Source of the DNA: Filomicrobium sp.
GTDB lineage: Bacteria; Pseudomonadota; Alphaproteobacteria; Rhizobiales; Hyphomicrobiaceae
Reading direction: 5' to 3'
Length of the DNA stretch: 64,000 bases
Assembly: GCA_040219445.1 (NCBI GenBank)
Contig: JAVJSM010000003.1
Location: 821,020-885,019 of the forward strand
This document shows positions 8,898 to 57,825 of this stretch, in pieces. Position 1 is the first letter of the stretch; every line of letters starts with the position of its first letter. The translations under genes and the position numbers were made by a program. The notes under the pieces were generated by a model. It searched no databases, was not told the DNA's origin, and was given only the letters and a program-made list of their open reading frames with translations.

Positions 8898-9338
8898 ATG
8901 GGTATGGATCAGGACGCTAAGTTGGCAGAAGTGCTGGCCGTCAACGAACACTTCTATGATGTTTTCCGTTCCGGTGACTTTGCGGCAATGGATGAGATGT
9001 GGTCACGGCGGGAGGATGTTTCGGTTTATCATCCCGATTGGCCAGGCATCACCGGTCGCGAGGACGTCATGGCTTCATGGCATCGGCTGATGATCAGCAA
9101 TGATCCGCCAGCTGTGTTCGTGCGTGACCCGATGGTGGTGCGCGAGGGCCGGGTCGCTGTGGTGTTTTGTTTCGAAGACGTTGAAGGTAGCACGATGACT
9201 GCTAGCAACGTTTTCGTAAAGGAAGACGGGGTTTGGAAAATTACCAGCCATCATGCACGCCCGTTGCCGCAGCTGGGCGAAGGCTCCGATGACGACGAAG
9301 CCGGTGATGCTGGTGGAACAGGTGATGGGGCTGCCTAG
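8898..9338 (+). CDS. SnoaL-like / NTF2-fold small protein (DUF4440-like) with an acidic C-terminal tail.
   Basis: ATG at 8898 with AAGGAG about 14 nt upstream. Sequence AVNEHFYDVFRSGDFAAMDEMWS...VWKITSHHA is typical of the NTF2-like superfamily. Confidence 0.55.
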   Translation: MGMDQDAKLAEVLAVNEHFYDVFRSGDFAAMDEMWSRREDVSVYHPDWPGITGREDVMASWHRLMISNDPPAVFVRDPMVVREGRVAVVFCFEDVEGSTMTASNVFVKEDGVWKITSHHARPLPQLGEGSDDDEAGDAGGTGDGAA

Positions 9339-9489
9339 GCCTCGTTTCCCCGATAACGTGATTTTTGAGAACCGGCGGCTACTTTAGGCGTCGGTTTTTT
9401 ATTGGCCTGAATCACTGGGTTCTGGGCAACTCTTCCAACTGGCGTTGGCCTCCAGTACAGCGGTGCGCCGGCAAGCGAATGTTTGAGTG

Positions 9490-11019
9490 TCAGGCGGCCT
9501 GTTTTCTACGCAGTGTTTCGCCCCGATAAGACAGTGCTTCTGCGATATGAAGGCGCGTTACCTGATCGGTTTCGTCCAGGTCAGCGAGTGTGCGTGCGAC
9601 ACGCAGTGTTCGGTGAAACCCGCGTGCTGATAATCCTAGGTTTTCGGCTGCTTGGCGAAGGAGCTTTTGCCCTGCTTCGTCTGGCATGGCGGTTTCTTCA
9701 AGGATTTGACCGGCACATTCCGCGTTGGTTCTGGTTCCTTTGACGCCGAGTGAGGCAAATCTTTCTAACTGGCGGTTGCGCGCACTCTCGACGCGGGCGC
9801 GTACTTCGGCGCTACCTTCTTTTGCTGGGGGCAAAACGAGGTCGGCTGCGGTTACAGCAGGGACTTCAATCTGAAGATCTATGCGATCCATCAGAGGGCC
9901 GGAGATCCGCGCCTGATAGTCTTCAGCGCACCTGGGACCACGCTTGCAGGACTGGCCCGGATTGCTTGTACCGCATCTGCAAGGGTTCATCGCGGCGATG
10001 AGCTGGATGCGCGAGGGGTAGGAGATCCGGTGATTGGCACGTGCAATGACCATTTCACCGGTTTCGAGCGGCTGACGCAGGCTATCGAGCACCTGTGGGT
10101 TGAACTCGGGAAGCTCATCGAGAAACAATACGCCCAGATGCGCTAGGCTCGCTTCGCCGGGGCGGGGGCGTGATCCGCCGCCGACGAGGGCGGCCATGCT
10201 TGCGGAATGGTGCGGTTGTCGGAAGGGGCGCTCGGAGGCAAGCTTGCCGCCCATCAATTCGCCAGCGAGCGAATGTACCATCGAGACTTCCAGCATTTCT
10301 TCTGGCGTGAGCGGTGGCAGGATGGATGGCAGGCGAGCTGCCAGCATTGATTTGCCTGACCCTGGTGGACCGATCATCAGCATGTTGTGGCCGCCGGCTG
10401 CAGCGATTTCGAGAACGCGTTTGGCGCTTTCCTGGCCTTTGATGTCTTTGAGGTCCGGCATCGGTTTCGCCGATTCGGCAATGCTTGGTTTGGGCCGGGA
10501 GAGGACTTGGTGACCTTTGAAATGATTGACCAAGCTTAAGAGGTGTTCAGGCGCGAGGATGTTCATTTCTTCCCCAGCCCAAGCGGCTTCAGAACCACAA
10601 GCTGCCGGGCAGATCAGCCCCTTGCCCAGAGCGTTAGCACCGATTGCAGCTGGGAGCGCACCGGGAACTTCCCTGATTGAGCCATCCAGGGCCAACTCAC
10701 CTATGGCGGCATATTCCGAGATAGCCTCCGGCGCGATTGCCCCCATCGCCGCCATCAGGGCGAGGGCGATGGCCAAATCGTAATGGCTGCCTTCTTTTGG
10801 GAGGTCGGCTGGAGCGAGATTTACGGTTAGGTGCTTATAAGGAAGGCCAAGGCCGACCGCGTGAAGTGCGTTGCGGACCCGTTTCCGGCTTTCTGCGACG
10901 GCTTTGTCGGGCAAACCCACGATCATGAAGGCTTGCTGTCCGGGTGTAATGCGGACTTGGACCTCGACAGCACGCGCTTCGACGCCGACAAAGGCGAGGG
11001 TCGAAATCTGAGCGTACAT
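9490..11019 (-). CDS. yifB: YifB/ComM-family Mg-chelatase-like AAA+ ATPase.
   Basis: N-terminal Lon-like domain (MYAQISTLAFVGVEARAVEVQV), Walker A GPPGSGKSML, and a C-terminal ChlI-like domain. Start taken at the ATG (MYAQ) rather than the upstream TTG. Confidence 0.85.
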   Translation of the reverse strand: MYAQISTLAFVGVEARAVEVQVRITPGQQAFMIVGLPDKAVAESRKRVRNALHAVGLGLPYKHLTVNLAPADLPKEGSHYDLAIALALMAAMGAIAPEAISEYAAIGELALDGSIREVPGALPAAIGANALGKGLICPAACGSEAAWAGEEMNILAPEHLLSLVNHFKGHQVLSRPKPSIAESAKPMPDLKDIKGQESAKRVLEIAAAGGHNMLMIGPPGSGKSMLAARLPSILPPLTPEEMLEVSMVHSLAGELMGGKLASERPFRQPHHSASMAALVGGGSRPRPGEASLAHLGVLFLDELPEFNPQVLDSLRQPLETGEMVIARANHRISYPSRIQLIAAMNPCRCGTSNPGQSCKRGPRCAEDYQARISGPLMDRIDLQIEVPAVTAADLVLPPAKEGSAEVRARVESARNRQLERFASLGVKGTRTNAECAGQILEETAMPDEAGQKLLRQAAENLGLSARGFHRTLRVARTLADLDETDQVTRLHIAEALSYRGETLRRKQAA

Positions 11020-16200: not shown

Positions 16201-16275
16201 GAGGCTATAGCTCAGAGGTAGAGCATCTGGGTCAGACCCGGAAGGACGAGGGTTCAAATCCCTTTAGCTTCTCCA
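16201..16275 (+). tRNA. 75-nt class I tRNA gene with encoded CCA and unusual identity. The acceptor stem has G3:U70 (the tRNA-Ala determinant) but the anticodon is CAG (Leu-decoding).
   Basis: Manual fold: acceptor GAGGCTA/TAGCTTC with G3:U70; D arm GCTC-AGAGGTA-GAGC; anticodon arm TCTGG-GTCAGAC-CCGGA; 5-nt variable loop; T arm GAGGG-TTCAAAT-CCCTT; discriminator T then CCA. Confidence 0.6.
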
Positions 16276-16276
16276 C

Positions 16277-16357
16277 GTTCGATGGTCGAACACTGGACTT
16301 TTAATCCAGCTAGCCGAAAGGCTTTCGCAGGTTCGAATCCTGCAATGCGTGTTACCA
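16277..16357 (+). other. tRNA-Sec (selC)-like partial tRNA structure lacking an acceptor stem.
   Basis: 6-bp D-like stem GTTCGA/TCGAAC with a 3-nt loop. Anticodon arm CTGGA-CTTTTAA-TCCAG (the E. coli selC stem is identical; the loop gives anticodon UUU). Long variable arm with GCC-GAAA-GGC. T arm GCAGG-TTCGAAT-CCTGC. No 5' strand pairs with the 3' AATGCGTG. A hairpin follows (ATGCGT...ACGCAT). Confidence 0.35.
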
Positions 16358-46415: not shown

Positions 46416-46523
46416 GGGCTGATCCTCCAAATTATAGTTGAGTGTTCAGTGTCGGTTTGAATATTGGCTCCAGCAAGAAAAAAAGTATCAAGTGTCGGTT
46501 TTGCGAGTGATCACAAACTTGAG

Positions 46524-47279
46524 ATGACAAGTTCGAAGAGACAGCGGTTGGACCAAGAGTTGGTGCGACGCGGCATGGTTCAGTCGCGTTCGCGGGCCCG
46601 TGATCTGGTGGCGCGGGGTGCTGTTTGGGTTGCCGGGATGGTTGCCGCGAAGGCCGGGCAGTTGGTGGATGCTGCGACTTCGATTGAGATTGATGAAGAG
46701 GCCAACGCTTATGTTGCCCGAAGCGGTGCCAAGCTGTTGGCCGGCTTGCGTGAATTCGGTTTCGGTTGCGATGGCGTAACGGCCCTTGATATCGGTGCTT
46801 CGACGGGTGGCTTTACGCAGGTTTTGCTAGAATCTGGTGCAGCTCGCGTCTATGCCGTCGATGTCGGGCAGGATCAGCTTGATGAGAGCTTGCTTGAGGA
46901 TCAACGCGTTGTGGTTTTGGAGGGGCAGGACGCGCGGAAGCTTACTGCGTCCCATGTGCCGGAACGCGTAGGGGCCATTGTCATCGATGTGAGTTTTATC
47001 TCGGTCACGAAGGTTTTGCCGCACATCGACAAGTTTGCGGGTCCTCAGTGCTGGCTCGTAGCTTTGGTCAAACCACAGTTTGAGCTCGGTCGGGAAGCGC
47101 TTGGAAAAGGAGGCGTCGTGCGTGATGCAGACGCTGGGTTGATGGCGTGCGAGAACGTGCGTGTTGTCCTTGAGGGGCTCGGGTGGCAGGTGACCGAAAC
47201 TATTGCTTCACCGCTACCGGGCAAGAAAGGTAACGTTGAGTTTCTTCTTGGGGCCCAACGCATTGGTGGCGGTGTTTAA
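46524..47279 (+). CDS. tlyA: TlyA-family rRNA 2'-O-methyltransferase (hemolysin A-like).
   Basis: S4 domain (RLDQELVRRGMVQSRSRARDLVARGAV). FtsJ-like methyltransferase with ALDIGASTGGFTQVLL. Confidence 0.85.
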   Translation: MTSSKRQRLDQELVRRGMVQSRSRARDLVARGAVWVAGMVAAKAGQLVDAATSIEIDEEANAYVARSGAKLLAGLREFGFGCDGVTALDIGASTGGFTQVLLESGAARVYAVDVGQDQLDESLLEDQRVVVLEGQDARKLTASHVPERVGAIVIDVSFISVTKVLPHIDKFAGPQCWLVALVKPQFELGREALGKGGVVRDADAGLMACENVRVVLEGLGWQVTETIASPLPGKKGNVEFLLGAQRIGGGV

Positions 47280-47349
47280 GGCGCAGGTTGCGGTAATGGT
47301 GCTGGGTTTTGAGAGAATCCATCTTCATCAGTCATAGAGAGAGACTAGG

Positions 47350-48576
47350 TTGCGGGTCACGATCGATAAGCTTGGCGCACAAGGCGATGGGATTGCCCGG
47401 ATCGGGGACCAGGATGTTTTTGTCCCGTTTGCACTGCCGGGCGAAGAAGTCGAGGTTGCGCTTGAAGATGAACGCGCGCAGCTGATGGATGTCGTCGCGC
47501 CATCGCCGCAACGGATTCAACCTGTTTGTGAGCACTTTGGTGTTTGCGGAGGCTGCAGTTTGCAGCACCTGAACCGTGACGACTACCGGGCATGGAAGCG
47601 TAGTTTGGTGAGCTCAGCTTTTGCGGCACGCGGAATTGCTGTTGATTTATCGCCTACGGTTGAGGTCGGTTTGGGTGGGCGCCGCCGGGTCGTTTTGACA
47701 GCGCGTAGGCAGGGTCGCGACATTGAGCTGGGTTTTTTGCAGGCAGGTCGCCATGTGCTGGTTGACCTTGCCGAGTGTCCGGTTGCGGCACCCGATATTC
47801 TTCGGGTGTTGCCGGGGTTGCGGCAGCTGCTGGTGCCGTTGGTTTCTAGCGGTGAAGATGTTCGCGTCACGATTTTGCGTGCCGAGAATGGCCTCGATGT
47901 GAATGTTGTGGGTGGGGCGGAGAAGCTCTCGCCGCGCGTGAGTGCTGAGCTTTCGCAGCGATCGGCTGAACTTGGGCTTTTGCGTCTGAGCCTTGATGAT
48001 GACCCGATTTATCAGGCCGGGTTACCTATCATCAAATGCGGGCCAGCTGAGGTGGCTCCTCCGCCGGGCGTGTTCCTTCAAGCCTCAGCTGAGGCCGAGT
48101 CAGAGATGGCTAAGTTGATCGTCTCGGCTTTTGGAAAACGTGCCAAGCGCGTGGCTGATCTTTTCTGCGGGGTAGGTGCGTTTTCGTTTCCGTTGGCAAG
48201 CCGGGCGAAGGTCCTTGCAATCGATAGCGAGGCGCGGGCAATCGATGCGCTTGAAGAAGCGGATCGGCGGACACAGGGCGTCAAAGGAATTGAAACGCGG
48301 GTGCGGGACTTGTTCCAGGAACCGCTTTCGCGCAAGGAGCTCGAGCCTTTTGATCTTGTCGTGTTCGATCCGCCGCGGGCCGGAGCAAAAGCCCAAGCGG
48401 CAAGCCTTGCTAAATCGAAGGTGCCCATTGTTGTGGCGGTGTCTTGCAATCTCGCAACGGCTGCGCGGGATCTGCGTACCTTGATTGATGGCGGCTACAG
48501 GCTGGTGCAGGTGACGCCGATCGATCAGTTCTTGTTTTCACCGCATGTCGAGGTCGTTTGCGTGCTGAAGCGATAG
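47350..48576 (+). CDS. 23S rRNA (uracil-5)-methyltransferase RlmD/RumA-like (TRAM domain, Fe-S, SAM methyltransferase).
   Basis: TRAM-like N-terminus. Cys cluster CEHFGVCGGCSLQH. C-terminal class I methyltransferase (DLFCGVGAFS, VFDPPRAG). TTG start. Confidence 0.8.
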   Translation: MRVTIDKLGAQGDGIARIGDQDVFVPFALPGEEVEVALEDERAQLMDVVAPSPQRIQPVCEHFGVCGGCSLQHLNRDDYRAWKRSLVSSAFAARGIAVDLSPTVEVGLGGRRRVVLTARRQGRDIELGFLQAGRHVLVDLAECPVAAPDILRVLPGLRQLLVPLVSSGEDVRVTILRAENGLDVNVVGGAEKLSPRVSAELSQRSAELGLLRLSLDDDPIYQAGLPIIKCGPAEVAPPPGVFLQASAEAESEMAKLIVSAFGKRAKRVADLFCGVGAFSFPLASRAKVLAIDSEARAIDALEEADRRTQGVKGIETRVRDLFQEPLSRKELEPFDLVVFDPPRAGAKAQAASLAKSKVPIVVAVSCNLATAARDLRTLIDGGYRLVQVTPIDQFLFSPHVEVVCVLKR

Positions 48577-48639
48577 GGTACGCGGCGGTAAGCCGTACGA
48601 CCAGCACTGCAATTCCACGTGAGTCTGTTTCTATCGAAA

Positions 48640-49371
48640 TTAAGCGGCCTGGCACCGTTCGAATGGTTGGCCTGAGAGAAGGTGCTCAACGTAAGCTGGA
48701 ACGATTTCGGTCGCGTGCCCGTGGTGGCATTCGGCGAAATGGCTTGCGGTGAAGGACGGCTCCAGGTTGAGTTCCACGGTATGCGCGCCTGCGTCGATGG
48801 CGGCAGCGACAAATCCAGCTGCCGGGTAGACATTGCCGCTGGTGCCGATCGAAAGAAACAGATCGCACTTTGACAGTGCATCAGCGATGCGCGGTAGGTG
48901 GTATGGCACTTCGCCAAACCAAACAACGTTGGGACGCAAGCCGCCGCTCAGTTCACATTCTGGACAGGTCAGTTCGTCGGAAAGATCGGTAGTCCAGGGT
49001 AGATGCGCATCACAGTGGGTGCAGACCATAGACTGCATGTCGCCGTGCATATGAAGCAGTTCGCTCGAGCCGGCCGCTTCGTGCAAACAGTCGATGTTTT
49101 GAGTGACGATCAAAACGTCGCCAGGATGGTTTTTTTGAAGGTGAGCGAGCGCGGCGTGCGCGTGGTTGGGCTGTGCTTTAGCGCCCTCTTTGCGGCGCAT
49201 GTTGTAAAATTCATAGACGAGGTGAGGATTGCGCTGGAAGCCTTCCGGGGTGGCGACGTCGCGATAATCGTATTTGTTCCAAATTCCGTCTTTGTCGCGG
49301 AAGGTTGCCAGTCCGGATTCGGCGGAAAGACCAGCACCCGAGAGAATTACAATACGCTCATATCCTGACAT
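48640..49371 (-). CDS. cobB: NAD-dependent protein deacylase (Sir2 family, CobB).
   Basis: GAGLSAESGLATFRD Rossmann motif. Zn ribbon (CTHCDAH...CPECE). VTQNIDCLHEAAG. Confidence 0.85.
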   Translation of the reverse strand: MSGYERIVILSGAGLSAESGLATFRDKDGIWNKYDYRDVATPEGFQRNPHLVYEFYNMRRKEGAKAQPNHAHAALAHLQKNHPGDVLIVTQNIDCLHEAAGSSELLHMHGDMQSMVCTHCDAHLPWTTDLSDELTCPECELSGGLRPNVVWFGEVPYHLPRIADALSKCDLFLSIGTSGNVYPAAGFVAAAIDAGAHTVELNLEPSFTASHFAECHHGHATEIVPAYVEHLLSGQPFERCQAA

Positions 49372-49763
49372 TGCAGCGCCTACTCCTGGGATTATGTCCT
49401 TTTGTTAGCATTTGCACAAAATCGTCATTAGCGGAAGCTAATCAAGAGGACGAAGGCATAGGAAGTTCCCATGTTGCGAATGGTTTTTCCTATTGGGTTA
49501 ACCGGGCTGCAATATGCTGCAGGCGGTGTTGTTGTGACTTTTTCCTTTCGAAATCAGAATCTTGTTTGGGCAATCATGATTTTTAGTTTGAGCTTCTGAT
49601 GCGGTGATCCTGCGCGGATCTTGTCGAAATTAGTTCTTTCGTTGAAATTGTTTCTAGGACCTAACTTTGCGGCGCTGGTCCCTCCGGTAAGCAACTCTGA
49701 CTTGAGCATTTGCGAGAAGAGATTATCGTTCTGGGTGTAGTCTGAAAGAAGCGTTGATGATGC

Positions 49764-50822
49764 GTGCAGGTGACCAGTATGGCGAACCAACTTGAAATGG
49801 CCGTGCAGTTTGCCGGGAACATGGCACGCATGTCCTGGTACAGCGGACTTAGCTGGATGATGCAACGGCAGTCGCGCCGGTTTGCGCCGCCTGTTTCGTT
49901 TACGCCGACCAAACCAGTTCCCGACCGCAAAGAGCTGCTTGCTGACCTACGTTCGCTCTTGCGAGCTGACGCACAGGCGGTTGCGCAAGGCGCTATGCCG
50001 ATGGGCCATGAAGAAGTGACTGGGCCTATCGAACACTTCCGTCGCATTCGCGGGATGTTTGCTGATCTGCCGGGTGTTGCTGAGCGTCGGCGCAATCGAG
50101 ACTCGTCAACGGTCGATGATGTTGTTGATGACGACGGGGATGAACTGCCCGACTACTTCAAGCAAGATTTCCATTTTCAGACTGGTGGCTATTTGTCGGA
50201 AGAGTCTGCGAAACTCTACGACATACAAGTTGAGACGCTGTTCAACGGTGCGGCTGCGGCCATGCGCAGGAAAGCGTTGGTGCCACTTCATGAAGTTATG
50301 GCTGCGAGAGACCAGCGAAAGGTTTCTTTGTGCGACGTGGCTTGCGGGACGGGACGTTTGCTCAAGGATGTTCGTCGGCTGTACCCTGCGATGCGCTTAA
50401 CCGGGCTTGATCTTAGTGCGACCTATCTGGAGGAGGCGCAACGGCATCTTGGCTCTCTTCGGAAGGTCGACTGGTTGAACGCGAATGCAGAAGAGATGCC
50501 TTTAGAAGACGCGAGCCAAGATGTGGTCACCAGCGTCTTTCTGTTTCACGAACTGCCGCCGATGGTTCGCCGCAATGTTGCTTGCGAAGTTGCGCGCATA
50601 CTGAAACCTGGCGGGTGTTTCATCTTCATCGACAGCTTGCAGATTGGCGATAAGCCAGGTTGGGACGGATTGCTGGAGGCGTTTCCGGTCCGCTTCCATG
50701 AGCCGTACTACCGCGGTTACGCGATTGATGACCTCGACGGTGTGTTTAGGGGTGCGGGGCTGACGATTGAATGCCAGAAGCTGGCTTTTCTTTCCAAAAT
50801 GCTGGTCTGCCGAAAGCCTTAA
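49764..50822 (+). CDS. Class I SAM-dependent methyltransferase.
   Basis: Motif I (VACGTGRLL). VTSVFLFHEL. Methyltransferase-11-like fold. Confidence 0.7.
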   Translation: MQVTSMANQLEMAVQFAGNMARMSWYSGLSWMMQRQSRRFAPPVSFTPTKPVPDRKELLADLRSLLRADAQAVAQGAMPMGHEEVTGPIEHFRRIRGMFADLPGVAERRRNRDSSTVDDVVDDDGDELPDYFKQDFHFQTGGYLSEESAKLYDIQVETLFNGAAAAMRRKALVPLHEVMAARDQRKVSLCDVACGTGRLLKDVRRLYPAMRLTGLDLSATYLEEAQRHLGSLRKVDWLNANAEEMPLEDASQDVVTSVFLFHELPPMVRRNVACEVARILKPGGCFIFIDSLQIGDKPGWDGLLEAFPVRFHEPYYRGYAIDDLDGVFRGAGLTIECQKLAFLSKMLVCRKP

Positions 50823-51180: not shown

Positions 51181-52065
51181 ATGACCAAGTTCAATCCTCA
51201 GCGTAATTCGACCGTTGTGGCGGAACTGAAGCTCTTGAACCCGTGGGTTGAGAACACCGACTATGGCGATGATGTCGTGCAACTTGCGCGGGCTCTGCTT
51301 GGCGACATCGGGCCCATTTCCGAAAAAGCACATTTCGAGCAGCGCTTGGCGACGATGGGTCGGTTTGCAGCCGGTCGGCAAACTTGGAATGCCTGGGCGC
51401 AGGACATGATGGATGTCCGCAGCCTCGCCGTTGCCGACCCTGCTTTGTCAGCCGTTTGCGACGCTCTGGCGATTGCGAATTTTTCCGGTGCTTGTTTTAC
51501 CGAAACGGTCGACTTTGCCGCCCTGCTGTTCCCTGGCAGAGCGGATTTTAGCGGAAGTGAATTCGAGGCTGACTGCTGGATGCAGGGTTCCACGTTCTAT
51601 GGACCAGCCGCCTTCCGACAAGTTTCGTTTATGGGAGACACGAACTTCGAGCGTTCCACTTTTTACGGGACCGCCGATTTCTCCAACTCGATGTTTTCGC
51701 GCCAGGGTCAGTTTCGGAAGTTCCAAGTTCTGGGGCAGGCGATTTTTGAGCATACCGATTTTGCCAGATGCGCTTGGTTCGCCGATGCCAAGATGCACGA
51801 AGCGTCCTTCGGCAAGGCGCGGTTTGCGGATGCCGCGGCGTTCACGGATTGCGAGTTCTCCGGCAAGGCGTCGTTTGAGCGCGCATGGTTTCAGAAATCG
51901 TGCGGGTTTGAAGGCGCGGTGTTTGGCCAAGATGTGAATTTTCGGGACGTCGATGTGGCGGGTGCGGCGTGGTTCTCAGGTGCGAAGTTTGCACAGGCTG
52001 CAATGTTTGAGGGCATGACGGTTGCTGGCGGCGGAGATTTCGCAGACATGTTTGAGCCGGCCTAA
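51181..52065 (+). CDS. Pentapeptide-repeat protein.
   Basis: Tandem A(D/N)LSG-type pentapeptides over about 200 aa (ANFSGACFTETVDFAALLFPGRADFSGSEFEAD...). Confidence 0.8.
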   Translation: MTKFNPQRNSTVVAELKLLNPWVENTDYGDDVVQLARALLGDIGPISEKAHFEQRLATMGRFAAGRQTWNAWAQDMMDVRSLAVADPALSAVCDALAIANFSGACFTETVDFAALLFPGRADFSGSEFEADCWMQGSTFYGPAAFRQVSFMGDTNFERSTFYGTADFSNSMFSRQGQFRKFQVLGQAIFEHTDFARCAWFADAKMHEASFGKARFADAAAFTDCEFSGKASFERAWFQKSCGFEGAVFGQDVNFRDVDVAGAAWFSGAKFAQAAMFEGMTVAGGGDFADMFEPA

Positions 52066-52110
52066 GGGCTCTGCGCATTGCCGATTTGATCAAAGTGAGG
52101 CGGATCAGTT

Positions 52111-53583
52111 TTGTTAAAAGAACCCGACATCAAGCCGCAAGTGACGCAGCAGGCGCCGTCGGCCGGCAAACGCATCTCTGTTTCTCTTGAGTCTTTCGAG
52201 CAGGTTCGTAGCTTGCTGTCGAAATTCAATGAAGATTACGAGATTACGTTCGTCGTCGCATTGCAGGACCAGTCGGGTATTCAGATTGCGTCAAGCGTCG
52301 ACAGCCGCCCGGCCGTGATCGACGGGAAAGCGGCACGGCGGAGCGGACAAAGCGGAAAAGTCCAACTCGTGTCGTGCGAAGATGAGCGCGACCCAGCACT
52401 CGAAGAGGCAATGCTGGCTTACTTTGACCAGCTGGAAGTTGCTGAGGCCGGCGGTGAGTTTGTTTTCAAATCAACACGGACGGAGTTCGATCACCGTACG
52501 GTTGGATTTCTGATTACGTCTTCACGCCAGGAACCCAGTGCAGAATCCGCCGCCAGCGAACCTCGGATGTTCGAGATCAAGCGGCTTTTTGATGCGCTGA
52601 TCTACGTCTCGCTTCAGTACTGCTTATCTCCGCGCCAATCGGATACCTTCTTTGGTTTAGCTCCAGACCTTCTTTCGCGTGCCGCAGCTCAGCTTTTCCT
52701 GCAAAAGCTATCGCAAGAAGCGACCGGCCGGATGAACTACGGGCTCTATGAGCTCTGCTGCGATTTGGCTGCAGCCCAGTACGAAGGCCGGGCGGGTGCT
52801 GGTTACATCGTGTTGGCAAAACGGGGTGCGGCCAACATTAAGCCAAGCATCGAATTCCGGCGTCCTGTGCATCTTTCGCACAAGACCGGTGCGCGCAAAT
52901 TGATCGAAATGGCCTCGCAGCAGTTCGCGTTGCTGTTTGATGGCGACTACTTCTATGGCTTTTGCGACTTCGACCAAATCCAGGATTGTCCGCATGTTCT
53001 GTTCAAGGGGCGTGGGATCTGGACGATGCAGCGTGGCGAGCAGTTGCTCGCGATGATCTCTTACGGCACTCCGGTTGAAGCCGAACGTATTCTGACCAAG
53101 CAGATCTTCCAGGCGCACATCAAAAAGTGTTTGCCGATGGTCGATGAGGAAGGGTTGGAGACGCTCTGGAACATTGCGATTATCGCAGCCCAACAGCCTG
53201 TGGGAACGAACATTCTCTTTACGCCAGCAGCTCCGAAAGAAGCGCAGCGGCTCTCGTCTCAATGTATCCCGATCCGGCCGGTGGCTCTGACACCGGAAGT
53301 TACAACGCAGCTCACGGCTATCGACGGGACTCTGATCGCAGATGTCGGCGGCAACGTGCATGCTGTTGGCGCGATCATGGATGGTGGTTCAACGTCGAGC
53401 GGCACATGGCAGCGGGGCGGGCGCTATAACTCGGCAGCGAATTACGTGACCAGCTCTCCACATCCGGCATTGATTTTCATTGTTTCCCAAGACGGGTACG
53501 TCGATATCGTGCCGCCAATGAATCCGAAGGGCGATAAATGGTCCATGAAGCGGTACCTAAAGTTGAACTCCACTGCCATCTGA
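52111..53583 (+). CDS. Hypothetical 490-aa protein whose C-terminal domain resembles a diadenylate-cyclase (DAC/DisA_N) fold with non-canonical motifs.
   Basis: C-terminal block IDGTLIADVGGNVHAVGAIMDGGSTSSGTWQRGGRYNSAANY parallels the DAC motif block DGA...(same 34-residue spacing)...GTRHRAA. The preceding VGTNILFT parallels the DAC GALIV motif. No TM segments. The N-terminal 350 aa are uncharacterised. Overlaps the next gene by 46 nt. Confidence 0.45.
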   Translation: MLKEPDIKPQVTQQAPSAGKRISVSLESFEQVRSLLSKFNEDYEITFVVALQDQSGIQIASSVDSRPAVIDGKAARRSGQSGKVQLVSCEDERDPALEEAMLAYFDQLEVAEAGGEFVFKSTRTEFDHRTVGFLITSSRQEPSAESAASEPRMFEIKRLFDALIYVSLQYCLSPRQSDTFFGLAPDLLSRAAAQLFLQKLSQEATGRMNYGLYELCCDLAAAQYEGRAGAGYIVLAKRGAANIKPSIEFRRPVHLSHKTGARKLIEMASQQFALLFDGDYFYGFCDFDQIQDCPHVLFKGRGIWTMQRGEQLLAMISYGTPVEAERILTKQIFQAHIKKCLPMVDEEGLETLWNIAIIAAQQPVGTNILFTPAAPKEAQRLSSQCIPIRPVALTPEVTTQLTAIDGTLIADVGGNVHAVGAIMDGGSTSSGTWQRGGRYNSAANYVTSSPHPALIFIVSQDGYVDIVPPMNPKGDKWSMKRYLKLNSTAI

Positions 53584-54545
53584 TCGGAGTTTTGACGCCG
53601 GCGCTCCTGTGGGATCTGCGTGCTGGTGGGGAAGAGATCCTGGTTGCGCCGGAGGCTGCCAAACCGGTTTCGTTTGGGGAAGGTCCTGACGGATTTGGGC
53701 AATGGCTCATGCGCGTTGAGCCCTATAAGACGGCTAGCTGGCGCACCTATCTGCCAATTCTTGGCTGGCATATCGAACAGCTCGTCGCGCAAGGTGTCGT
53801 CTATGCGGAGATGATGATTTCTCCGATGATGTTCTCGCGCGATTTTGGTGCACTTGCAGAGGAGTTCGCAGAATTCCGTACTTGGGTACGCGAGCGTGAA
53901 GCTGGGCGTATTCAGCTTGAGTTCTTGTTTCTCGTTCCGCGCAGTTTGCCCGACGAATTTATTGTCAAGGATACAGAGCGGTGCATCTTTCTGGCGAAAG
54001 AAGAAGGGATTGCCGGGATCTCAATTGCGGGCCTTGAAACCGACCAACCGGCGACCCGCTTTTCGCGGATGTGCCGGGAGCTGAAAGATCATGGTCTTGG
54101 CATCGAGATCCACGCCGGTGAGCTTGGCGGGCCGGATGAAGTCATAGAAGCAATTGACGTTTGTGGCGCAGACCGGATCGGTCACGGTATTGCGGCGTTT
54201 GAAGATCAGGATTTGGTCGAGCGCTTGCGCGATGAGCAAGTGCATCTGGAATTCTGCCCGACCAGCAACCTCAAGATGGGGGCTGCCGCATCCATTCCGC
54301 AACACCCTATCGGGCAAGCGCGAGACCTGGGGCTCAATTTTTCGATCAATACCGACGATCCGGGAGCGTTTGGTTGCACGATGGCCAGCGAGTTTGAGTT
54401 AGTGCGTGAGCACTTCGGTTTTTCTGATCGTGACTTTGAAGCCGTAGCCAGGAACTCTTTGGCCTCAAGTTTCGCAAAACAGATTCGTGTTAGTGGAATG
54501 AGTCTAGAGGTTGCGCGGCGCCCCACAACCGCCGACGTGAGCTAA
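53538..54545 (+). CDS. Adenosine/adenine-deaminase-family metal-dependent hydrolase.
   Basis: ADA-superfamily motifs: ELHCHL (HxH), IHAGE, DRIGHG, CPTSN, SINTDDPG. Its start lies inside the end of the upstream gene. Confidence 0.8.
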   Translation: MVHEAVPKVELHCHLIGVLTPALLWDLRAGGEEILVAPEAAKPVSFGEGPDGFGQWLMRVEPYKTASWRTYLPILGWHIEQLVAQGVVYAEMMISPMMFSRDFGALAEEFAEFRTWVREREAGRIQLEFLFLVPRSLPDEFIVKDTERCIFLAKEEGIAGISIAGLETDQPATRFSRMCRELKDHGLGIEIHAGELGGPDEVIEAIDVCGADRIGHGIAAFEDQDLVERLRDEQVHLEFCPTSNLKMGAAASIPQHPIGQARDLGLNFSINTDDPGAFGCTMASEFELVREHFGFSDRDFEAVARNSLASSFAKQIRVSGMSLEVARRPTTADVS

Positions 54546-54814: not shown

Positions 54815-56572
54815 ATGAGCAACGCATTTAGCGACGCTTTGGATAGCGGCTATCGCCTGTCTGACAAGACAGTGACTTATGCGTTCAGCGACGACTACTT
54901 TGCTTGGAACAGTTACGAGATGGCGCAGTTCCGAGCGGCTCTCGAACAGTGGTCGAACGTTGCGGACCTGCGGTTCGTGCAGACGGCCAATGAAGCCCAG
55001 GCCGACTTCTTGTTGCATAACGTCAATGACGCGGTGTTTGGCCAAGAAGGTATTCTCGGTGCCTTCTTTTTTCCCGGGAACGGACAGCAGGACGGATACT
55101 TCAATTGGCAGGGTGTTGGCTGGGATTACACCAACTCTACTGGTGGCCTGGAACAGGGTGGGTTTGGTTTCTCGACAATCCTGCATGAAGTTGGTCACGG
55201 GTTGGGTCTTGCGCATCCGCATGATGATGGCGGCACATCAACGGTGTTTACCGGCGTCACCAGCCCTTGGGTTACCGGGTACTTAAATTACAATCAGAGC
55301 TTCCACACGGTCATGAGCTACATCGACGGCCGTGTCGGCGATAATCTCAATCCCTATTCGACGCCAAACTACGGCTGGTCTGGCGGCCCTATGGCGTTTG
55401 ACATCTACACAATCCAGCAGATGTATGGAGCCAATCAGTCCTACAAGACCGGCAACGACACCTATCAGCTGATGGCTTCCAACGGGACGGGGACCTACTA
55501 CCAGGCGCTGTGGGATGCTGGCGGTATAGATACGATTGAGCATCGGGGCAGCGCTGCTTCGACCATCGATTTGCGGGCCGCCTCTGTGAACTTTGGCGAT
55601 CCTTACGCCGGTGGATACCTGTCGAGCGTAAATGGTGTCTACGGTGGCTATACCATTGCAAATGGTGTTGTGATCGAAAACGCCCGCGGAGGTTCAGGCA
55701 GAGATTTTATTTTTGGCAACTCTTCGAACAATGTTCTTATCGGCAACAACGGACATGACCGGCTGTTCGGTATGGATGGCCGCGATGTTTTGAAGGGGGG
55801 CGACGGCCACGACTTACTTGATGGTGGTCTGGGCAACGATGTTCTTCGCGGCGGTGATGGTAACGATACAATCAAGACCGGTGAAGGTGCGAATGCTGCC
55901 TATGGTGGTTTTGGCCATGATGTTCTGACCGGTGGGTCGTTGCGCGACACACTGGTTGGAGATCAACACAACGACCGCCTTATCGGTGGTGGCGGTTTTG
56001 ACAGACTGTTTGGAGGTTCGGGACGAGATGCCCTTCTTGGTGGGACTGGTAATGATAGGCTTGCTGGAGGGACGGAGAATGATGTCTTGAACGGTGGTTC
56101 AGGCAATGACTTGCTCTATGGCGAAGCGGGCAATGACAGACTGTTTGGGCTTGCCGGTGATGACATCCTTCATGGTGGCTCTGGTCGGGACTTGTTGCGT
56201 GGGGGAGATGGTCGAGACCGGCTGATTGGATCTACCGGCGACGATCTGCTCGATGGTGGTGCTGGTAACGACTTTCTAGCAGGGGGGGCTGGCCGCGATC
56301 GCTATTGGGGCGGTGAAGGCAATGATACCTATGCCTTTGCCAACGGTAGCGACACCGCAAGTTTTAGCGACAACTGGGGCGATGATGTTGTTCGTGGTTT
56401 TCGCTTGGGCGAGGACCGTCTCGATTTGCGAGACGTCACGGGGCTCAATCGGATCGGTCAGCTTACGATTGAAGCAGATGGCCGTGATACCTTAATTTCG
56501 TTTGGCGGAAATAGCATCCGCTTGCTCAAAGTGGATGCTCAGCAAATCGATGCTGACGATATTTTGCTTTGA
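54815..56572 (+). CDS. Serralysin-family (M10B) zinc metalloprotease with RTX calcium-binding repeats. Likely type I secretion substrate.
   Basis: HEVGHGLGLAHPHD zinc motif. Met-turn TVMSY. More than 15 GGxGxDxL nonapeptide repeats. No N-terminal signal peptide. Confidence 0.8.
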   Translation: MSNAFSDALDSGYRLSDKTVTYAFSDDYFAWNSYEMAQFRAALEQWSNVADLRFVQTANEAQADFLLHNVNDAVFGQEGILGAFFFPGNGQQDGYFNWQGVGWDYTNSTGGLEQGGFGFSTILHEVGHGLGLAHPHDDGGTSTVFTGVTSPWVTGYLNYNQSFHTVMSYIDGRVGDNLNPYSTPNYGWSGGPMAFDIYTIQQMYGANQSYKTGNDTYQLMASNGTGTYYQALWDAGGIDTIEHRGSAASTIDLRAASVNFGDPYAGGYLSSVNGVYGGYTIANGVVIENARGGSGRDFIFGNSSNNVLIGNNGHDRLFGMDGRDVLKGGDGHDLLDGGLGNDVLRGGDGNDTIKTGEGANAAYGGFGHDVLTGGSLRDTLVGDQHNDRLIGGGGFDRLFGGSGRDALLGGTGNDRLAGGTENDVLNGGSGNDLLYGEAGNDRLFGLAGDDILHGGSGRDLLRGGDGRDRLIGSTGDDLLDGGAGNDFLAGGAGRDRYWGGEGNDTYAFANGSDTASFSDNWGDDVVRGFRLGEDRLDLRDVTGLNRIGQLTIEADGRDTLISFGGNSIRLLKVDAQQIDADDILL

Positions 56573-56682
56573 TTTTTGCTTGGTACGGGCACTAGGTGGT
56601 CGCTTTCACGCATAAATGAAAAAAATACGGCGTGATCTTGGATCGAGGAGCGCACTGATTTTGGAGCAGCCAATTCTGCTGC

Positions 56683-57825
56683 TTATTCGTCGTTTTCCAA
56701 ATCATCCAACGGTTCAGAGCTAGTTGCCGTTGCGCTCGGAACGGGGTCGCGGCCGTCCAGAACGGTGTCATGTACGAACCGGATCTGGTCCAGGTCTTGG
56801 ATGATCGATTGGGAATTTGAAAGTACGCTTCGAATAAAGATGAATAGAAAGCGAATGAGTAGGAAACCGATCAGGAGGTAAATCAGACGCTCGGTTGTTG
56901 TCTCCATTGAAGAAAGCACCACAATGGCTGTTGCTAGGACCGCGCCAGAGACAACTGCGAACACAAGGTCTGGGCTCGATTGACCTTTCAGCATGGTTTG
57001 ACGCTTGTCCGATACCTTGCCAGTTAGGCGAAGATAATCCTGGGTCAATGCTGTAAGCTGCTCTTTAGTGATAGGGGTTGCCGGCTGTTTTCGTTTGGCC
57101 CTTTTCGGTAGCATTTGCTTGAAGACTTCGCTGCGCTCCTTTTCAAGATTGGAAATTGTTTTGCTTGCAACGTGCGCGCGGCGGCCGGCCACAAGATAGA
57201 CGGCTTGCAGCGGTAGCAGGGCAGCCAGTGCGAAGATGATCAACATCGGTAATACTAGGCTTAGCAAGGCAAGGATCAAGCCGCACATGGCTGTGTATGA
57301 AATTGCTTCGGCTAAGTTGACGCTTGCCCGGGCGTAGGCACCGATGCTGCGCATTGCGCTCGCGCGGGTGTCGCGTTCGGCGATAAATTCTGTCACGCGT
57401 GGTTGCTCGAAGAAGGAGCTTAACAACGCATGTTCGCCATTGATCCTCATTTTGTATTTGAGAAGCTTTTGGAAATAGCCTGCCAGTCCCGCACTCACGT
57501 AGAGCAGGACGATCAATCCGCCGCCAATCCAAGCGACGTCGGGTTTTGTTAGGCTGCTGCCGTCAAAGCCAAGCGCGTTGGCGATACCCTTTGCTTGTTC
57601 CCACTGAAAAAAAACTACGGCAGCAATTTTGATCGTTCCAGCCAGCGCTGCAAGGTTCAAGCCTCGGGCAATCAGGCCAAGTAGGACAACTAACGTGAAA
57701 TCGAATGTGAGTTTGTGACACACATAGTGGACGAACCGCCTCAGTGTGCTCAACGCCTTCTTTATCGAATTCGGATTGAGTGCCGAGAGGTGGTCCCACA
57801 AGCCGGTGGTCGTTGAGTTGCCCAT
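56683..57825 (-). CDS. Polytopic membrane protein resembling an ABC-exporter transmembrane domain without an ATPase (SbmA/BacA-like possibility).
   Basis: 380 aa with about 6 TM helices and an acidic C-terminal tail. No nucleotide-binding motifs. Confidence 0.45.
   Translation of the reverse strand: MGNSTTTGLWDHLSALNPNSIKKALSTLRRFVHYVCHKLTFDFTLVVLLGLIARGLNLAALAGTIKIAAVVFFQWEQAKGIANALGFDGSSLTKPDVAWIGGGLIVLLYVSAGLAGYFQKLLKYKMRINGEHALLSSFFEQPRVTEFIAERDTRASAMRSIGAYARASVNLAEAISYTAMCGLILALLSLVLPMLIIFALAALLPLQAVYLVAGRRAHVASKTISNLEKERSEVFKQMLPKRAKRKQPATPITKEQLTALTQDYLRLTGKVSDKRQTMLKGQSSPDLVFAVVSGAVLATAIVVLSSMETTTERLIYLLIGFLLIRFLFIFIRSVLSNSQSIIQDLDQIRFVHDTVLDGRDPVPSATATSSEPLDDLENDE

Follow-up and report, generated by a model that had tools for sequence, protein, structure and literature searches.

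An overlapping diadenylate-cyclase-family and deaminase gene pair in Filomicrobium, a candidate nucleotide-signalling module

Enzymes with a diadenylate cyclase (DAC) domain were first shown to act in anti-phage immunity in 2026, in the DS-2 and PanDA/Panoptoo systems, and members of the adenosine deaminase (ADA) family serve in RADAR, Cad1, and Kongming as effectors or as generators of the signal. We analysed a 64,000-nucleotide (nt) stretch of Filomicrobium sp. DNA (assembly GCA_040219445.1, contig JAVJSM010000003.1; below called the window, with positions counted from its first letter) in which these two themes are joined in one gene pair. A cassette at 51181 to 54545 on the forward strand encodes a pentapeptide-repeat protein, a 490-amino-acid (aa) protein of the DAC family, and a 335-aa ADA-family deaminase whose gene overlaps that of the cyclase. 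The cyclase and deaminase genes are a conserved functional pair and not chance neighbours, and the pair probably constitutes a nucleotide-based module for conflict or signalling that has not been described, rather than a housekeeping gene with an accidental partner. We give a probability of roughly 45% to the reading that the whole cassette is a cyclase and nucleotide-deaminase signalling or effector module, most likely one related to conflict.

Described relatives of the two enzymes

The DS-2C/CdaG proteins have a DACNG-DACNH-DAC architecture and belong to DS-2, a CBASS variant (PMC13092281; bioRxiv 10.64898/2026.08.10.743927; Nabhani et al., bioRxiv 10.64898/2026.08.10.743972). DS-2C proteins make cyclic di-AMP (c-di-AMP) in vitro (Ragucci et al., bioRxiv 10.64898/2026.08.10.743927), and anti-phage defence by DS-2 is lost when the DAC catalytic residues are mutated (DefensePredictor, Science 2026, PMC13092281). 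The window cyclase is homologous to these proteins over DACNH and DAC, with about 30 to 35% identity, and shares with them an invariant Asp-Gly and, in place of the RHR motif, the variant R-(Y/F)-N-S-A. It differs from them in having an unrelated N-terminal domain in place of DACNG. The partners differ as well: DS-2C is accompanied by a CD-NTase with a phospholipase or 2TM-beta effector, whereas the window cyclase is accompanied by the ADA-family deaminase and the pentapeptide protein, and no CD-NTase or CBASS effector gene was found among the neighbours in any ADA-linked locus examined. The NCBIfam model DS2_3_antiphage (NF053872) matches cyclase residues 185 to 483 (model positions 200 to 503 of 576) at E = 6.4e-74, with 249.3 bits against an equivalog cut-off of 630 bits that is not reached. 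The closest characterised relative of the cyclase is the anti-phage DS-2C protein, but the window protein falls outside that family by cut-off, by DACNG, and by partner. With DS-2C as the nearest characterised relative, the undescribed nucleotide-signalling or defence-like module put forward in the original prediction is credible.

PanDA/Panoptoo likewise places a DAC enzyme gene beside a single putative effector gene, and it offers a precedent for a DAC product that restrains an effector. Its enzyme, PanS, is about 150 aa long and consists of the DAC domain only, whereas the 490-aa window cyclase has DACNH and an extra domain. PanE is a membrane-bound 2TM-beta effector; the counterpart in the window would be a soluble deaminase, and neither PADLOC nor Pfam gave a match to a 2TM-beta effector among the neighbours.

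On the deaminase side, RdrB of RADAR is an ADA-family nucleotide deaminase that serves as a defence effector, and like Cad1 it turns ATP or dATP into ITP or dITP. RdrB is about 850 aa long and has the RdrA ATPase as its partner, whereas the window locus has no ATPase neighbour and its deaminase scores 23.5 bits against the 800-bit cut-off of the RdrB model NF041744 (PADLOC RdrB, E = 0.068). With Cad1, which is found among its PDB matches under the annotation CRISPR-associated adenosine deaminase, the window deaminase shares the ADA-family barrel: the PADLOC model CARF_ADA matches at 9.7e-31 over its ADA part (model positions 340 to 583 of 605), and both proteins lack an acidic residue after HxHL (HCHLGG in Cad1, HCHLIG in the window). 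Cad1 has an N-terminal CARF domain that the window deaminase lacks, and no cas genes were seen among the scanned neighbours in the window and related loci, a scan that was not exhaustive for the window. Kongming KomA, which converts dAMP to dIMP in a pathway whose immune signal is dITP, is also a small ADA-family nucleotide enzyme in a multi-gene anti-phage system. This likeness is drawn from the description of the system, and the partners are HAM1-like KomB and SIR2-like KomC rather than a DAC protein.

Full-text literature yielded no paper containing both "diadenylate cyclase" and "adenosine deaminase", the DAC classification of Galperin (2023; PMC10127676) lying outside the coverage of that search. 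Papers that name c-di-AMP, adenosine deaminase, and phage together do so in separate contexts only.

Linkage of the cyclase and deaminase genes

The two open reading frames read in the original prediction, 52111 to 53583 for the cyclase and 53538 to 54545 for the deaminase, are borne out, as is their overlap of 46 nt (53538 to 53583), in which the 3' end of the cyclase gene and the 5' end of the deaminase gene are dual coding. Direct reading of the sequence places a GAGG Shine-Dalgarno motif (52097 to 52100) 10 nt upstream of the TTG at which the cyclase gene begins, and cyclase homologues begin at an equivalent ML(K)EP N terminus. The deaminase has a GAAGG Shine-Dalgarno motif of its own within the cyclase coding region (53526 to 53530), 6 to 7 nt before the ATG at 53538. 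Further, the codons for the metal-binding H-C-H of the deaminase (53571 to 53579) sit inside the final cyclase codons, so a later deaminase start cannot remove the overlap.

The same arrangement recurs in other lineages. Two close relatives (L001 and L003) are syntenic with the window. In two others (L004 and L005, 46 to 47% identity) the flanking genes are unrelated, yet the order pentapeptide-cyclase-deaminase and an overlap of 46 to 49 nt are kept, and the pentapeptide proteins retain 39 to 43% identity to that of the window. From the deaminase as seed, we also found relatives of about 45 to 49% identity in other lineages that adjoin short DACNH-DAC genes (about 290 to 310 aa), one of these pairs being on a Terriglobia contig. 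The overlap with the ADA-family gene is conserved in both forms, measuring 46 to 49 nt in all loci of the long form and 1 to 14 nt in those of the short form.

The pairing is specific to one kind of deaminase. We scanned metagenome contigs with ADA seeds and scored the neighbours with purpose-built hidden Markov models (HMMs). Where the ADA has a non-acidic motif, all 5 of the loci that could be assessed have a DAC gene immediately upstream, against 0 of 58 assessable HCHL[D/E]G loci (Fisher p = 1.4e-7; with two near-identical loci collapsed, 1.8e-6), and a DAC neighbour is missing from 74 of 74 ADA loci with Asp or Glu after HxHL. The only exception, a subtype ADA with no DAC, is found in L024 beside a cytidine-deaminase-like partner gene, indicating that the substrate of the deaminase need not be a DAC product. 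The functional pairing suggested in the original prediction is upheld by this linkage together with the order and overlap conserved across lineages. Cyclase and ADA identities also co-vary over eight independent loci (Mantel r = 0.69, p = 0.003), a result given little weight because shared organismal phylogeny could produce it.

The long form has one further member. The pentapeptide-repeat gene (51181 to 52065; 294 aa; Pfam Pentapeptide_3, 1.5e-26) ends 45 nt before the cyclase start, as had been predicted. Searched with an HMM of this protein, all long-form loci (the window, L001, L003 to L005, and L008 to L020) show the partner immediately before the cyclase gene, and no short-form locus gives a match. 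As a conserved third member, the pentapeptide gene belongs to the long-form cassette only.

Domains and active sites

The 490-aa protein consists of three parts. A clade-specific alpha/beta domain (about residues 14 to 140; 52150 to 52530) lies in an N-terminal region of about 185 residues, followed by a DACNH domain (residues 210 to 299; 52738 to 53007; Pfam PF21750, 9.7e-15) and a DisA_N-like DAC catalytic domain (about residues 335 to 470; 53113 to 53520). The original prediction had found nothing recognisable in the 350 aa that precede the DAC block, a view that the DACNH match corrects; DACNH is present in all 13 members of the cyclase family. The Pfam DAC model itself (PF02457), named as a check, does not match the 490-aa protein at E <= 1 and is reached by 3 of the 13 family members, with a best E value of 8.7e-9. 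DAC homology is therefore shown only transitively and by structure. Foldseek comparison of an AlphaFold2 model (predicted local distance difference test score, 77.4; predicted template-modelling score, 0.77) with the PDB returned diadenylate cyclases as all of its top 50 matches, each with probability 1.00. This predicted fold identifies the C-terminal block as a genuine DAC domain, in keeping with the assignment made in the original prediction. Sequence-only searches for solved DACs (phmmer of the DAC region and hmmsearch of the PDB with 13- and 66-sequence profiles) found none at E <= 10.

The N-terminal domain, confidently modelled by AlphaFold2 within the first 185 or so residues, sets the protein apart. 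An exhaustive search of representatives returned 1,625 related clusters, most of them CdaG-type proteins of about 580 aa, and in all of these except the closest two the alignment begins only at about residue 185; no sequence relatives of the N-terminal domain were found beyond those two. The domain has no Pfam DACNG match, and hhalign gives it a probability of 3% against DACNG, compared with 99.8% for a DACNH control; by hhalign it matches none of DACNG, DACNH, and DAC. Its structural matches are weak and point to GAF-, IclR-C-, and roadblock-like folds that bind small molecules or proteins. Because this domain is specific to the clade, the protein represents a new architecture within the DACNH-DAC superfamily.

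The motifs that had been proposed as counterparts of GALI, DGA, and RHR, namely GTNILFT, IDGT, and RGGRYN, are all present. Alignment by hhalign with sequences of DisA and CdaA taken from PDB alignments places them in register (for TmDisA, GT(N)IL with GALI, IDGT with MDGA, and RGGRYN with TGTRHR); owing to a shallow template profile its probability reaches only 60%, and we used it for motif register and not as proof of homology. D405-G406-T407 (53323 to 53331) is the counterpart of DGA, with D405-G406 aligned to D75-G76 of TmDisA and Thr, not Ala, in third place. R438-Y439-N440 (53422 to 53430) is the counterpart of RHR, of which the first Arg alone is kept, so that the protein departs from the canonical motif. 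From Asp to Arg we count +33, equal to TmDisA, compared with +32 in LmCdaA; the predicted spacing of 34, said to be shared with DisA and CdaA, was slightly off.

The DAC domain had also been called degenerate, with both catalytic residues replaced. The wider family argues otherwise. No variation is seen at D405, G406, R435, G436, R438, N440, or S459, either among 66 sequences of the superfamily or among the 17 of the ADA-linked clade, and the consensus of the 66 reads TAIDGA...RGARYNSA...VVSEDG. P0038, a positive control that scores 633 bits, above the DS-2C equivalog cut-off, reads IDGA, RGARFNSA, and ISEDG. Since all of the superfamily has R-(Y/F)-N, DS-2C proteins with their reported activity among them, it is a trait of the clade and not the mark of a dead domain. 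Asp, Gly, and the first Arg are retained. T407 is an invariant Thr in the ADA-linked clade and Ala in DS-2C/CdaG, and the ADA-linked cyclases carry a signature of their own (GTN, IDGT, RGGRYNSA, VSQxG) as against that of DS-2C (IDGA, RG[AS]R[YF]N, VSEDG). The DAC domain of the window protein is thus not degenerate and is predicted to be an enzyme of the active type, an argument resting on motif invariance across the superfamily and not on the sequences of the assayed proteins themselves.

The deaminase retains the catalytic apparatus of its family. It matches A_deaminase (PF00962) with 191 bits against a gathering cut-off of 27 (E = 3.5e-56), and the five predicted motifs are all present, HCH at residue 12, HAGE at 192, RIGHG at 213, CPTSN at 240, and NTDDP at 271. 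The metal-binding and catalytic residues H12/H14, H192-A-G-E195, H216, and D273-D274 are intact and invariant in the clade. With the TIGR01430 adenosine deaminase model, however, it reaches 197.3 bits against a cut-off of 216.55, and it falls far below the cut-offs of all other adenosine-deaminase equivalogs in NCBIfam. A 100% identical protein from a Filomicrobium sp. metagenome-assembled genome (MAG) is labelled "hypothetical" by NCBI, and relatives are labelled "adenosine deaminase" or "aminodeoxyfutalosine deaminase" in some data sources.

The most telling departure is in the segment H12-C13-H14-L15-I16 (53571 to 53585), in which Ile comes after the metal-binding HxH and Leu; canonical ADAs carry Asp or Glu in its place. 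In mouse ADA, Asp19 is the acidic residue that contacts the ribose of adenosine, and we take Ile16 of the window deaminase to occupy the same position. Among the 120 closest ADA clusters, this residue is Leu, Ile, Val, Ala, or Gln in 102 and Asp in 14. In solved structures, it is Gly in Cad1 (HCHLGG), Glu in the adenine deaminase 3ou8 (HLHLEG), and Leu in 4gxw (HCHLLG). DAC-linked ADAs also differ from their closest HCHLDG relatives at residues 98 (M/E), 99 (F/L), 137 (L/R), and 174 (R/P), which are candidate specificity positions (53829 to 53834, 53946 to 53948, and 54057 to 54059). The deaminase belongs to a distinct ADA subtype and would be a dedicated partner rather than an adenosine-salvage enzyme. 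HCHL[I/L]G in the deaminase, with IDGT, RGGRYN, and VSQxG in the cyclase, provides a testable signature of the pair. PDB entry 4gxw is a structural-genomics "adenosine deaminase" without an assigned function, and a similarly altered active site may therefore already have been solved.

Possible functions and genomic context

Outside Filomicrobium, the deaminase gene often has a conspicuous neighbour. An nSTAND1-FGE-sulfatase gene directly adjoins the pair, or the ADA without DAC, in five independent loci, and its N-terminal effector domain varies: it is TIR in L004, L021, and L022, CHAT in L024, and Trypsin in L105, where Trypco1 lies alongside. In four of the five, the STAND and deaminase genes are tightly convergent. 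Proteins of this kind are proposed conflict-system receptors in the literature, which mentions neither DAC nor adenosine deaminase in connection with them. The recurrent convergent placement suggests an unrecognised accessory of bacterial NLR-like receptors.

In the reading that we prefer, 51181 to 54545 would be one operon-like cassette encoding a nucleotide second-messenger module. The 490-aa protein would be an active-type DAC-family enzyme, in a sister clade of DS-2C/CdaG, whose cyclase domain is controlled by DACNH and by the sensor-like N-terminal domain, probably together with the pentapeptide-repeat protein. The deaminase would be translationally coupled to the cyclase and would act on an adenine nucleotide rather than adenosine. 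As the output of the module, it would most likely convert ATP or dATP to ITP or dITP, and it may be either switched on by the cyclase product or held off by it as in a Panoptes/PanDA-like guard. In Filomicrobium, the module would now be a stably inherited chromosomal cassette. This proposal builds on the DAC fold, the conserved catalytic positions, the operon structure, the exclusive linkage of DAC with one ADA subtype, and the recurrent STAND neighbours, and it extends from them to enzymatic activity, product identity, deaminase substrate, direction of regulation, and biological role. If a DAC product does control a nucleotide-depleting deaminase, this would be a new output of cyclic-dinucleotide immunity, and the Filomicrobium version would be a case of such a module domesticated into the core chromosome.

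An unlikely alternative is that the deaminase acts on the cyclase product itself, turning c-di-AMP into cAMP-IMP or c-di-IMP, either as a new messenger or to terminate the signal in place of a phosphodiesterase. The exclusive linkage and translational coupling of the two enzymes would suit such serial action, and so would the loss of the acid that contacts the ribose hydroxyl, which would be needed to admit a nucleotide esterified at both 3' and 5'. The ADA-linked cyclases' own signature is compatible with a co-adapted pair, and Kongming provides a precedent for an ADA-family enzyme that generates an inosine-nucleotide immune signal. However, the subtype ADA of L024 has no nearby DAC, a receptor or effector that could serve this messenger is missing from the minimal two-gene loci, and no ADA-family enzyme is known to act on cyclic dinucleotides. 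We favour the deaminase as output over the deaminase as editor because of the L024 locus, the Cad1-like substrate-contact residue, and the lack of any other effector in the two-gene loci. Editing of the cyclase product, if true, would be new messenger chemistry, and an inosine-containing cyclic dinucleotide would be a second-messenger class not yet described. Likewise unlikely, in our estimate, is a more specific pair of proposals: that serial action of the two enzymes yields an inosine-containing cyclic dinucleotide (cAMP-IMP or c-di-IMP) as messenger, or that the pair is a self-contained guard, with a DAC product holding back an ATP/dATP deaminase, and a recurrent accessory of NLR-like receptors of the nSTAND1-FGE-sulfatase kind.

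We regard as similarly unlikely a physiological role in Filomicrobium, in which the cassette would be a c-di-AMP-type signalling unit (for example, in osmotic or ion homeostasis), with the deaminase serving linked purine turnover and not immunity. Several observations speak for this role and against a conflict module. The cassette is syntenic in at least 12 Filomicrobium-type species representatives, where it lies among housekeeping genes with no GC anomaly; in the window, GC content is flat across the region. The cyclase is 74 to 86% identical across Filomicrobium species, above the adjacent housekeeping genes at 46464 to 50822 (TlyA, 59 to 71%; tRNA methyltransferase, 55 to 74%; UbiE-like methyltransferase, 59 to 71%) and at least as conserved as the flanking CobB-like SIR2 and CysNC genes. 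This conservation indicates unusually strong purifying selection, and together with the synteny it is atypical of defence genes and fits a physiological role. The Filomicrobium cassette is vertically inherited and lies outside any defence island. The immediate neighbours that were scanned include no defence genes, and the window has no STAND gene, its longest open reading frame being not above 721 aa. Some short-form loci lie among GGDEF/EAL signalling genes.

Other points weigh against the conflict-related output model. PADLOC has no match for the cyclase or for the pentapeptide protein, and the clade was not found on viral contigs, with only distant CdaG-type relatives on plasmids. Synthesis of c-di-AMP is reported for the DS-2C relatives only and not for the ADA-linked clade. 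The best solved relatives of the deaminase are the bacterial adenine-deaminase-like 3rys (1.5e-33) and 3ou8, with Cad1 (9c67) farther away at 3.6e-16, and the 335-aa protein has no recognisable ligand-sensing domain, unlike Cad1 with its CARF domain.

Against a purely physiological unit stand the closest characterised relatives, which are defence proteins, and the independent non-Filomicrobium loci, half of which adjoin nSTAND1-FGE-sulfatase genes. The family is also patchy, with the long form in 14 of about 185,000 species representatives, and the ADA subtype departs from salvage ADAs at the substrate-contact residue. An Rfam scan of the window detected no c-di-AMP riboswitch, which is weak evidence as only 64 kb were covered.

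An inactive sensor, an option raised in the original prediction, in which the DAC-like domain binds a nucleotide without synthesis and so controls the deaminase, is improbable. The counterparts of H109 and R110 of RHR are indeed replaced, the Ala of DGA is Thr, and neither Pfam DAC nor the profile searches of the PDB gave a match at sequence level. But R-(Y/F)-N is found throughout a superfamily that includes DS-2C-type proteins with reported c-di-AMP synthesis, and the invariance of Asp-Gly, the first Arg, and the Ser/Asp of VS(Q/E)(D)G is the pattern expected of a working enzyme. Least likely by far, and already largely refuted, is that the deaminase is an ordinary add gene with a new upstream neighbour, the housekeeping alternative allowed in the original prediction: the intact ADA catalytic motifs and the deaminase labels on some relatives favour it, but it is opposed by the 5 of 5 versus 0 of 58 DAC linkage (the subtype being found only beside DAC genes, apart from one exception with a different partner), by an overlap kept across lineages, by a TIGR01430 score under the cut-off, by the lost Asp after HxHL, and by the identical protein that NCBI leaves "hypothetical".

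Of the two neighbours named in the original prediction, the pentapeptide-repeat gene is a true cassette member and the protease is not. A type I secretion-type protease of the serralysin/RTX kind does follow the deaminase gene, and a methyltransferase is also among the neighbours. The protease and a 380-aa membrane protein (54815 to 57825) were considered as module members and rejected, since relatives either lack them or conserve them poorly. Both are absent in L003, L013, L015, L016, and L019, and the membrane protein, which is multi-pass and has no family match, shows 36 to 62% identity where present, far below its neighbours. The SIR2 gene at 48640 to 49371 was rejected as a defence NADase; it is a syntenic, housekeeping-type neighbour and is absent from the non-Filomicrobium cassettes. 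Promoter and terminator scans gave matches no better than the chance level.

The related loci contain further genes of possible interest. In L024 (5209 to 10542, a Phaeodactylibacter MAG), a MafB19/dCMP-deaminase-like gene precedes the HCHLIG ADA and a convergent CHAT-nSTAND1-FGE-sulfatase gene, with no DAC; the arrangement may be a two-deaminase variant of the module. L021 (5551 to 11991) and L022 (4902 to 11941), on unrelated contigs, carry in the same order a DAC gene, an ADA gene, a convergent TIR-nSTAND1-FGE-sulfatase gene, and the gene of an S1/P1 nuclease, which may belong to the same neighbourhood. In L105 (6126 to 11780; also L106 and L107), a 291-aa DACNH-DAC protein and the ADA are encoded beside a convergent 1161-aa Trypsin_2-nSTAND1-FGE-sulfatase and a Trypco1 gene. 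The contig collection lists this ADA in 46 blocks, of which 24 contigs were examined. An HTH_11-WYL-WCX regulator (BrxR/CapW-like) lies two genes upstream of the short DAC-ADA pair in L028 (281 to 1231) and L029 (1995 to 2945). Three genes from the DAC-ADA pair, L023 encodes a Lactamase_B protein (9146 to 9775) with a weak match to Anti-Pycsar Apyc1, and GGDEF and GGDEF-EAL genes flank the pair both in L023 and on the contig of P0217.

Elsewhere in the window, two tRNA matches lie 5 nt apart on the forward strand (16201 to 16343). The second, a weak match of 34.4 bits that covers only model positions 10 to 63 of 71, may be a degraded or unusual tRNA.

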